A stretch of DNA of 64,000 nucleotides, from sequence record MN445185.1; one strand, given 5' to 3'. Shown here in pieces: positions 47,035 to 47,086 of this stretch. A model generated the notes under the pieces. That model did no database searches and was not told the origin of the DNA. It saw only the letters and a program-made list of their open reading frames with translations. This DNA is from Escherichia phage vB_EcoM_EC001. A program made the translations under genes and the position numbers. Numbering within the stretch: the stretch's first letter is position 1; every line of letters starts with the position of its first letter.

Positions 47035-47060
47035 TACGCTTCCTTAAAAAGTAGAACGAG

Positions 47061-47086
47061 CGGACTATGTCCATAAACATAGTCCG
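47061..47086 (-). other. Intergenic RNA hairpin upstream of the first precursor gene
   Basis: Perfect 10-bp stem cggactatgt / acatagtccg between the fibre gene stop and the peptide RBS. Confidence 0.45.

Follow-up and report, generated by a model that had tools for sequence, protein, structure and literature searches.

The late promoters of phage phiKZ, which are used by its non-virion RNA polymerase (nvRNAP), are defined by the sequence 5'-TATG-3'; the G is the start site, and none of the four bases can be dispensed with. The middle promoters of the same phage have the block AAanTTACc near -24, and two of them, P62M and P78M, also carry a correctly placed TATG (Ceyssens 2014, Yakunina 2015). 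In the phiKZ genome, P78M reads AAAATTAC-N15-TATG. Purified nvRNAP gave no transcription of middle promoters in vitro, even of those with TATG, and the activity of a site that combines TTAC with TATG may therefore need an additional factor. Terminators in phiKZ are GC-rich hairpins followed by TTAT. Two other kinds of hairpin also serve as comparisons for the present locus. The virion RNA polymerase of phage N4, a single-subunit enzyme, uses promoters with a stem of 5-7 bp and a 3-nt loop, with the start downstream of the hairpin, and these promoters need supercoiling and SSB. Intercistronic stabiliser hairpins are found in polycistronic mRNAs, such as those of the Rhodobacter puf operon, E. 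coli malEFG (REP), and the pap operon, and contain no promoter.

The locus lies in a 64,000-nt stretch of Escherichia phage vB_EcoM_EC001 (MN445185.1), referred to here as the window. A sequence search with positions 45900-48400 gave 99.2% identity to Salmonella phage JN03 and 98.3% to SPN3US, and on these values the window is DNA of an SPN3US-like jumbo phage of the genus Seoulvirus, which is related to phiKZ. RNA polymerase subunit genes are annotated in SPN3US, so that the multisubunit RNA polymerases are phage-encoded. The hairpin sits within a 20-kb run of minus-strand genes, which begins with a 1237-aa gene, a 1376-aa gene, two hairpins, a 1727-aa gene, and a 400-aa fibre gene. The hairpin under study follows, and then three Cys-rich peptide genes, a 295-aa ORF, two radical SAM genes, and two ORFs, before the run ends at a bidirectional terminator (41621-41644).

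The last fibre gene (47100-48302, minus strand, from the ORF list) has a coiled-coil C-terminal half and ends in the stop codon TAA at 47102-47100. Its length of 400 aa, as given in the original prediction, is right for the annotated start at 48302, and the mechanical ORF from 48338 would give 412 aa. Annotations in SPN3US, JN03, and relatives call it a virion structural protein, and its Pfam matches were weak and to coiled coils only. After an intergenic gap of 65 nt comes the first Cys-rich peptide gene (46642-47034, minus strand, 130 aa), the first gene downstream of the hairpin, with its ATG at 47034-47032 and the ribosome-binding site (RBS) AAGGAAG at 47045-47039. This ORF shows 41-78% identity in relatives, had no match in a Pfam search, and is missing from the SPN3US RefSeq annotation. 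The other co-directional genes, identified from ORFs, annotation, and Pfam, occupy 41662-46631 on the minus strand (two Cys-rich peptides, the 295-aa ORF, two radical SAM genes, and two ORFs). Synteny of the fibre, peptide, and two radical SAM genes was found in Seoulvirus, Erskinevirus, Machinavirus, Wellingtonvirus, and Derbicusvirus, and a homologue of the 295-aa ORF is present in all of these genera except Derbicusvirus. Literature searches on radical SAM genes with Cys-rich peptides in jumbo phages returned nothing relevant, and those on SPN3US transcription or its transcriptome found nothing in the paper library searched.

A perfect 10-bp stem had been proposed between the fibre stop codon and the peptide RBS, with a U-run about 10 nt beyond it. 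The two arms, cggactatgt (47086-47077) and acatagtccg (47070-47061), are exact reverse complements on the minus strand; they lie between the TAA at 47102-47100 and the RBS at 47045-47039 as described, and the run ttttt at 47050-47046 starts 10 nt after the stem. The span given at the time, 47046-47086, extends from the start of this stem to the end of the T-run. We found that the helix exceeds 10 bp, as ACGAGC (47092-47087) pairs with GCTCGT (47061-47056) across one bulged C (47086). The full hairpin is thus a bulged structure of 16 pairs at 47056-47092 on the minus strand, 8 nt after the fibre stop codon. By folding and by covariation among 15 distinct sequences, its 5' arm (47077-47092) consists of ACGAGC, the bulged C, and GGACTATGT; the loop (47071-47076) is TTATGG; and the 3' arm (47056-47070) is ACATAGTCC followed by GCTCGT.

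The folding energy calculation suggested in the original prediction bore out the stability of the structure: the hairpin RNA has a minimum free energy of -23.7 kcal/mol (z = -7.3), and none of 200 shuffled sequences folded equally well. In a 76-nt context around the hairpin, the values were -24.3 kcal/mol and z = -3.7. Ten loci of the window carry a perfect stem of at least 10 bp and a 3-8 nt loop, where 0.4 are expected, and all 10 are intergenic. The hairpin therefore exceeds chance expectation, and the nascent sense RNA carries a stable stem-loop as intrinsic terminators do. Rfam covariance models gave no match at E <= 10 across 44000-50000.

We compared 20 distinct versions of the fibre/peptide gap, representing Seoulvirus, Erskinevirus, Machinavirus, Wellingtonvirus, and Derbicusvirus together with uncultured IMG/VR contigs. 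A hairpin around TATG was observed at the same place in all 20, with energies of -14 to -26 kcal/mol; z ranged from -4.9 to -7.3 in eight representatives and was -2.2 and -3.3 in two Derbicusvirus representatives. The arm sequences vary by clade, with GGACTATGT, GGGTCATGT, GAGGAC-CTG, ACGGGC-CTCG, GGGCG-ACTC, GGGTG-ACTC, and AGGAGGA-CTATGC all represented. In a hand structural alignment of 15 distinct sequences, which was fitted to the pairing before the pairs were counted on it, 171 of 171 cells were paired (100%), compared to 61% in column shuffles and 37-54% in slid-partner controls. Both sides had changed in 15 of the 21 pair columns of this hand alignment, and the covariation score was 0.55 versus 0.14. 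Since the alignment was fitted to the pairing, it is the z scores of the individual sequences that provide independent support. RNAalifold on a plain, unfitted MAFFT alignment returned no consensus structure because the arms, being of unequal length, were misaligned. One compensatory change can be seen within Derbicusvirus, where the stem reads GGGCG/CGCCC or GGGTG/CACCC.

The pairing is not symmetric between the strands. In 12 of 15 versions the sense RNA had the lower folding energy, the mean advantage over the antisense being 3.3 kcal/mol, and 18 G.U pairs were counted in the sense structures versus 1 in the antisense, from which it follows that the pairing is selected in RNA. This asymmetry is expected of a structure selected in a transcript and not of a duplex-DNA palindrome, a cruciform, or a protein operator. 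The two arms occur together only in RNA that arrives from upstream, that is, from the fibre operon. The hairpin is a real, conserved, and functional element. A 16-bp inverted repeat around a conserved core at a gene boundary could also be read as a DNA operator for a dimeric phage regulator, but the arm sequences are not conserved and change in step so that pairing is kept, and the sense-only G.U pairs break the symmetry of the DNA; we consider an operator extremely improbable.

Only three blocks are invariant in the 20-sequence alignment: the TATG of the loop, an AC about 20 nt upstream of it, and AAGG in the RBS. Outside these blocks, two individual positions of the stem never change. TATG (47075-47072) is kept in 20 of 20 versions while the loop and stem bases next to it vary. 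The AC belongs to a TTAC block (47091-47094, minus strand), which by its conservation and its likeness to phiKZ is a putative upstream element of a promoter, covering -22 to -19 if counted from the predicted start. Its last two bases, A and C, never vary and the T before them hardly does, with the forms TTAC, TAAC, or AAAC among the 20 versions. Seventeen versions have 15 nt between TTAC and TATG, and the remaining 3 (the Wellingtonvirus clade) have 16 nt. The spacing is independent of where the stem starts: depending on the clade, TTAC is part of the stem or stands outside it by up to 4 nt. TTTAC starts just 5 nt past the fibre stop codon, with no terminator ahead of it.

These features were compared with the two phiKZ promoter types. 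As in phiKZ late promoters, TATG stands on the non-template strand, and the predicted start, G 47072, is 38 nt before the peptide ATG. RNA beginning at this G has no significant structure (z = -0.3). TTAC at -22 to -19 corresponds to the block of the middle promoters, while the A-rich 5' half of that block is unmatched in SPN3US. The extended consensus TATGAC, which is found at several other sites, is not matched at the junction, where the sequence reads TATGG. By analogy with phiKZ, we infer that TTAC-N15-TATG at the junction is an active promoter with its start at the G.

The invariant ATG in the loop could instead start a small upstream ORF that controls translation of the peptide gene, with the purine-rich 5' arm as its Shine-Dalgarno sequence. 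GAGG-like sequences do occur 8-11 nt upstream of the ATG in many versions, and in nine versions the ORF ends 17 nt into the peptide gene. However, frames 0, 1, and 2 relative to the peptide gene all occur, the shortest ORF has 8 codons and the longest more than 40, close relatives differ, and the encoded peptide is not conserved. The T before the ATG is also invariant, though a start codon does not need it, and the supposed Shine-Dalgarno sequence would be buried in a stem of -24 kcal/mol. With frame, length, and sequence all unconserved, we rejected this candidate as very improbable.

To place the junction among similar sites, we searched for the bipartite pattern elsewhere. TTAC-N15-TATG has eight exact matches in the window, four of which (826, 7045, 16154, and the junction) are intergenic, in sense orientation, and 24-100 nt before a gene start; as 5% of the window is intergenic, the binomial P is 5e-4. 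SPN3US as a whole has 25 matches, and 15 of them are in the 7% of its genome that lies outside ORF calls (P = 8e-12); 12 of these 15 are in sense orientation upstream of a gene. The junction belongs to this family by position and orientation, being intergenic, sense, and 24-100 nt before a gene, and by having conserved blocks with a free spacer. Its three sisters in the window, all on the plus strand and all candidate promoters by pattern match and conservation, have no hairpin. Those at 826-848 and 7045-7067 come directly after a terminator, in the layout of a terminator hairpin, a T tail ending in TTTAC, the spacer, and TATG. The third (16154-16176) lies 24 nt before a gene start, with a terminator ~50 nt upstream. 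At all three, TTTAC and TATG are kept in pEa_SNUABM_29 and STsAS, and the 15-nt spacers have diverged. The sister sites fold weakly, at -2 to -6 kcal/mol.

TATG was also observed at positions that call for a promoter. A divergent promoter palindrome at 61518-61526 has TATG on both strands and reads GGTCATA[G/A]TATGA[A/C]C in Stratton, Huxley, Kwan, and EarlPhillipIV. It heads both the fibre operon (first start codon 61485-61483, minus strand) and a gene from 61553 (plus strand), and TATG on both strands at this divergent head of the fibre operon is conserved in five genera. In this phage group, TATG thus marks positions at which a promoter has to be present, as the palindrome shows. A further TATG (21582-21585) stands ahead of the plus-strand structural operon. 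Taken together, the pattern matches and these TATG sites are good indirect evidence for phiKZ-like promoters in this phage group, one of them at the junction.

The junction could also be read as simply a leaky intrinsic terminator, with the downstream genes expressed by read-through only and the TATG and TTAC kept incidentally. A hairpin with a U-rich tail after the stop codon, and the absence of a separate terminator before the junction, are what such a reading would predict. Against it, TATG and TTAC are conserved like the RBS while the stems and tail drift, and the spacing between them is fixed and independent of the stem boundaries. The bipartite pattern is also enriched in intergenic sequence, conserved at three other sites, and matched by phiKZ P78M. 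A plain leaky terminator is therefore improbable.

Nesting of the pattern within a hairpin is not confined to the junction, although it is uncommon. In SPN3US at 72,639-72,690, TTAC-N15-TATG has its TATG in the loop of a hairpin of 9 pairs with no T tail; this site is downstream of the major head gene, in an SPN3US-specific stretch absent from five relatives. At the gp118/gp119 junction of EarlPhillipIV, TAAC-N15-TATG is found with TATG in the loop of a hairpin with 6 pairs plus CTTTTATTTTTTTG. A hairpin-enclosed TAAC-N15-TATG was noted at 55.1 kb (55,133-55,190) in phiKZ as well. A possible additional case in Kwan was set aside because it lies inside a gene. We also considered TATG-in-loop hairpins as a broad class and rejected it: TATG ranked only 60th among 4-mers in intergenic loops, which are dominated by the TTCG type. 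Given this rank, nesting is the exception and not the rule. Of the 15 intergenic TTAC-N15-TATG sites, at least 10 lack a hairpin, and since most sister promoters are hairpin-free, nesting could merely reflect the very short intergenic gap.

The nested cases also bear on a reading in which the inverted repeat is itself part of the promoter, with a DNA hairpin or cruciform, or eased opening, presenting single-stranded TATG to the beta-like subunit in an N4-like manner. One model would then cover both the stem and its TATG loop, and TATG lies in the loop at SPN3US 72,639-72,690 and at EarlPhillipIV gp118/gp119 too. The phiKZ polymerase binds TATG only on the opened non-template strand, and phiKZ promoters may have further determinants, notably downstream of the start. 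The DNA strand does fold, at -15 kcal/mol (z = -6.8), and in Derbicusvirus the hairpin persists without a T tract. However, the sense bias of the G.U pairs (18 versus 1) would put A.C mismatches in the other arm of a cruciform, and phiKZ P78M and p119L, like at least 10 of the 15 intergenic sites, are free of hairpins. A normal transcription bubble is moreover too short for -18 to pair with +17. We regard a DNA-hairpin promoter as quite unlikely.

The tail that follows the stem is the least conserved part of the junction. In the window, the T-rich tail is TCTACTTTTT (47046-47055, minus strand), and the SPN3US-type hairpin is followed by UCUACUUUUU and then the RBS. The T score of the SPN3US tail, 2.0-2.7, is within the range of the window's own terminator-like hairpins. 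In Erskinevirus (Stratton, Asesino) and Huxley, T6-T7 directly follows the stem, with a d score of about +31; the tail is interrupted in the Seoulvirus versions and weak in Wellingtonvirus. In Derbicusvirus there is no T tract, and the RBS comes immediately after a stem that is nevertheless retained. TTAT is found within the tail in several relatives.

Standard terminator measures gave mixed results at the junction. A simple consensus terminator scan did not call the hairpin: if the bulged extension is left out of the stem, T makes up only 4 of the 8 bases at the start of the tail. The d'Aubenton-Carafa d score, which was trained on E. coli, was borderline to negative for the SPN3US version; the obvious terminators of the window span -40 to +37 on this score, which is therefore a poor judge here and was used for relative comparison only. 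The phiKZ terminator motif (BCCYCCCC-loop-GGGRRGG-YTTAT) does not match the window, where the stem is ACGAGCCGGACTATGT and the tail TCTAC. Some relatives come closer to it, for example with AGGAGGA/TCCTCCT followed by CTTTTTTTATTTT.

As Derbicusvirus keeps the hairpin without a T tract, termination cannot be the only conserved role of the stem. It must also do something beyond classical termination, whether protecting the 3' end, pausing the polymerase, or helping the promoter. For the same reason, we give the termination step roughly even odds and keep a stabiliser and a structured promoter as rivals. Termination or stabilisation is inferred from anatomy only.

The strongest of these rivals is an intercistronic stability or processing hairpin that blocks 3'-to-5' exonucleases after cleavage in AU-rich sequence and so sets the half-life of the fibre mRNA, with the promoter acting independently. 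The selection of pairing in sense RNA, the Derbicusvirus hairpin that has no T tract at all, the interrupted T tract of SPN3US, and the single-stranded AU-rich tail after the stem in most versions would all suit it. The textbook T6-T7 directly after the stem in several relatives speaks for termination instead, and no cleavage site is visible in the sequence. It differs from our preferred explanation only in how the 3' end arises, and we hold it to be possible, if doubtful.

The explanation that we consider somewhat more probable than its negation is an internal phage promoter nested in a terminator-like or stabilising hairpin for fibre transcripts. Two signals would share the junction. The first would be a phiKZ-type promoter for the phage nvRNAP, made up of TTAC at 47094-47091, a 15-nt spacer, and TATG at 47075-47072; with initiation at G 47072, the mRNA of the peptide and radical SAM genes would begin with an unstructured leader of 38 nt. 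The second would be an RNA hairpin whose 5' arm doubles as the promoter spacer, whose loop holds TATG, and whose 3' arm spans +3 to +17 when counted from the predicted internal start. This hairpin would form only in transcripts arriving from the upstream fibre operon. In these, together with the U-rich tail, it may act as an intrinsic terminator or attenuator, or at least protect the 3' end. Since RNA from 47072 lacks the 5' arm and is unstructured, the hairpin would act only on incoming fibre transcripts, and those started in the loop would be immune to it. The junction would in this way uncouple expression of the peptides and their maturases from that of the fibres.

The original prediction had suggested that the hairpin could act as a partial terminator or a processing or stability element. 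The selection in sense RNA, the position, and the T6-T7 tails of relatives agree with that suggestion, which misses the probable embedded promoter and with it a change in the regulatory logic. It had also been proposed that the hairpin sets the stoichiometry of peptide to fibre. If the promoter is active, the peptide genes are not expressed by read-through alone, and the hairpin would separate two transcription units as opposed to simply scaling one against the other.

A stronger version of the nested arrangement would tie the stem to initiation as well, with TATG shown at the hairpin tip to nvRNAP or to a middle-promoter factor. The nested TATG sites at 72.6 kb in SPN3US and at gp118/119 in EarlPhillipIV are compatible with such a link, which we consider unlikely. 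If it were true, the junction would be a single switch in which upstream termination and the next start are physically coupled, and one missing determinant of promoter choice beyond TATG would be supplied.

The junction bears on what directs a phiKZ-type polymerase beyond the four bases of TATG and on what recognises middle promoters. The spacing of TTAC-N15-TATG is shared between a Pseudomonas phage and jumbo phages of enterobacteria, and the motif yields about a dozen candidate promoters in SPN3US. The locus offers a natural, phylogenetically supported case of a predicted start site in the loop of a terminator-like hairpin, a compact layout in which a terminator would act on incoming transcripts and not on those born inside it. 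It also gives reason to think that the unannotated Cys-rich peptide genes and the radical SAM genes form their own expression unit and not the tail of the fibre operon, which would affect how, and how much, peptide is made.

Compared with known systems, a phiKZ-type promoter and a terminator-like hairpin are two known kinds of element, and we did not find their nested layout described. The closest likeness is to phiKZ P78M, which shares the TTAC-containing block ~20 nt upstream and the start TATG at the identical N15 spacing; both phages are chimalliviruses that encode a multisubunit non-virion RNA polymerase. P78M has no hairpin, whereas here the spacer and the first transcribed bases make up a conserved 16-pair hairpin and the start is predicted. 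The phage also belongs to another genus with another host, and the part that is A-rich in the AAanTTACc of phiKZ middle promoters is T-rich here (TTGTTTAC). With the phiKZ late promoters, the junction shares a TATG conserved at all four positions, here across five genera; unlike it, they have no upstream block, and p119L has no inverted repeat around its TATG.

Intrinsic terminators, including the phiKZ type, resemble the junction in having a stable sense-RNA stem-loop just past a stop codon and a T-rich tail. The apical stem here is AT-rich, however, with a 6-nt loop of fixed sequence and not a UUCG-type tetraloop; SPN3US has an interrupted T tract and Derbicusvirus none, and a predicted promoter lies inside the hairpin. 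The N4 hairpin promoters are alike by analogy only, in that a promoter signal is displayed at a DNA stem-loop. The junction departs from the N4 type in its 16-pair stem, its start predicted in the loop, its RNA-like pairing bias, and the multisubunit polymerases of the phage, to which the N4 enzyme is unrelated. Finally, like the intercistronic stabilisers, a hairpin between cistrons could give unequal abundance upstream and downstream, but unlike them, the hairpin at this junction holds a promoter signal.

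At the head of the fibre operon in the window is a 67-nt gap between the start codon of its first gene (61485-61483, minus strand) and that of a divergent gene, which starts with GTG at 61553 on the plus strand. This gap contains the palindrome GGTCATAGTATGAAC (61518-61526), which presents TATG, the start-site motif of the phiKZ non-virion RNA polymerase, on each strand. A candidate bidirectional late promoter, the palindrome is kept in Stratton, Huxley, Kwan, and EarlPhillipIV. Further along the operon, two neighbouring stable hairpins on the minus strand (53562-53629; -26 and -23 kcal/mol) separate the 1376-aa gene from the 1727-aa gene, and three other genera keep them. 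Of the two, the second is a canonical terminator, with TTTTATTAC after it. We found no TATG after this pair, and therefore expression of the 1727-aa and fibre genes would rely on read-through or an unrecognised promoter.

At the far end of the fibre genes, three Cys-rich ORFs were identified on the minus strand, of 130 aa (46642-47034), 134 aa (46227-46631), and 68 aa (46005-46211). All share a leader-like N-terminal region followed by C-x-x-x-type Cys/Ser/Gly repeats, with 37-78% identity and conservation across five genera, and none of the three has a match in Pfam. They are absent or annotated in the wrong frame or strand in the SPN3US RefSeq record, where gp100 corresponds to an overlapping wrong-frame ORF (46223-46558 of the window), and likewise in most relatives. 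Downstream lie a 295-aa ORF and a pair of genes for radical SAM enzymes, and together these genes look like a peptide-maturation module joined to the fibre genes.

Hairpins enclosing the putative phiKZ-type promoter pattern were also observed in other phages. A second TTAC-N15-TATG with TATG in a hairpin loop (9 pairs, -18 kcal/mol, no T tail) occurs at SPN3US 72,639-72,690 (22639-22690 of the extracted stretch L085), in an insert 3' of the major head gene that is missing from five relatives. In EarlPhillipIV (104,019-104,064; L083 320-365), the TATG of a TAAC-N15-TATG occupies the loop of a GGGCGA/TCGCCC hairpin, with CTTTTATTTTTTTG coming next. The loop ATG is the annotated start of gp119; a second ATG preceded by GAGGA lies 36 nt downstream and looks like the true start. 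Within PHIKZ065 of phiKZ (55,133-55,190; L079 15133-15190), a -21 kcal/mol hairpin encloses TAAC-N15-TATG.

The 15-mer TTCAGATAKATRTTA has four intergenic plus-strand copies in the window (873-887, 7720-7734, 16119-16133, and 20663-20677), against 0.01 expected. These sites are probably early promoters for the virion polymerase; two of the four have the sequence ATATATTAC, similar to the AT-rich core of phiKZ early promoters. A cassette at 790-890, comprising a terminator, TTAC-N15-TATG (826-848), and an early-like motif, looks like a regulatory module that has been repeated: in SPN3US a near-exact second copy of the entire cassette lies about 3.8 kb upstream, at 94,2xx (L085 44189-44211 corresponding to 826-848). 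Several terminators in the window have almost identical arms (ACCCTACTCC...GGAGTAGGGT, CCTACCT...), namely those at 20605-20628 and 62823-62847, and also 8084-8109 and 41621-41644. This echoes phiKZ and 201phi2-1, for each of which one conserved terminator motif has been reported.
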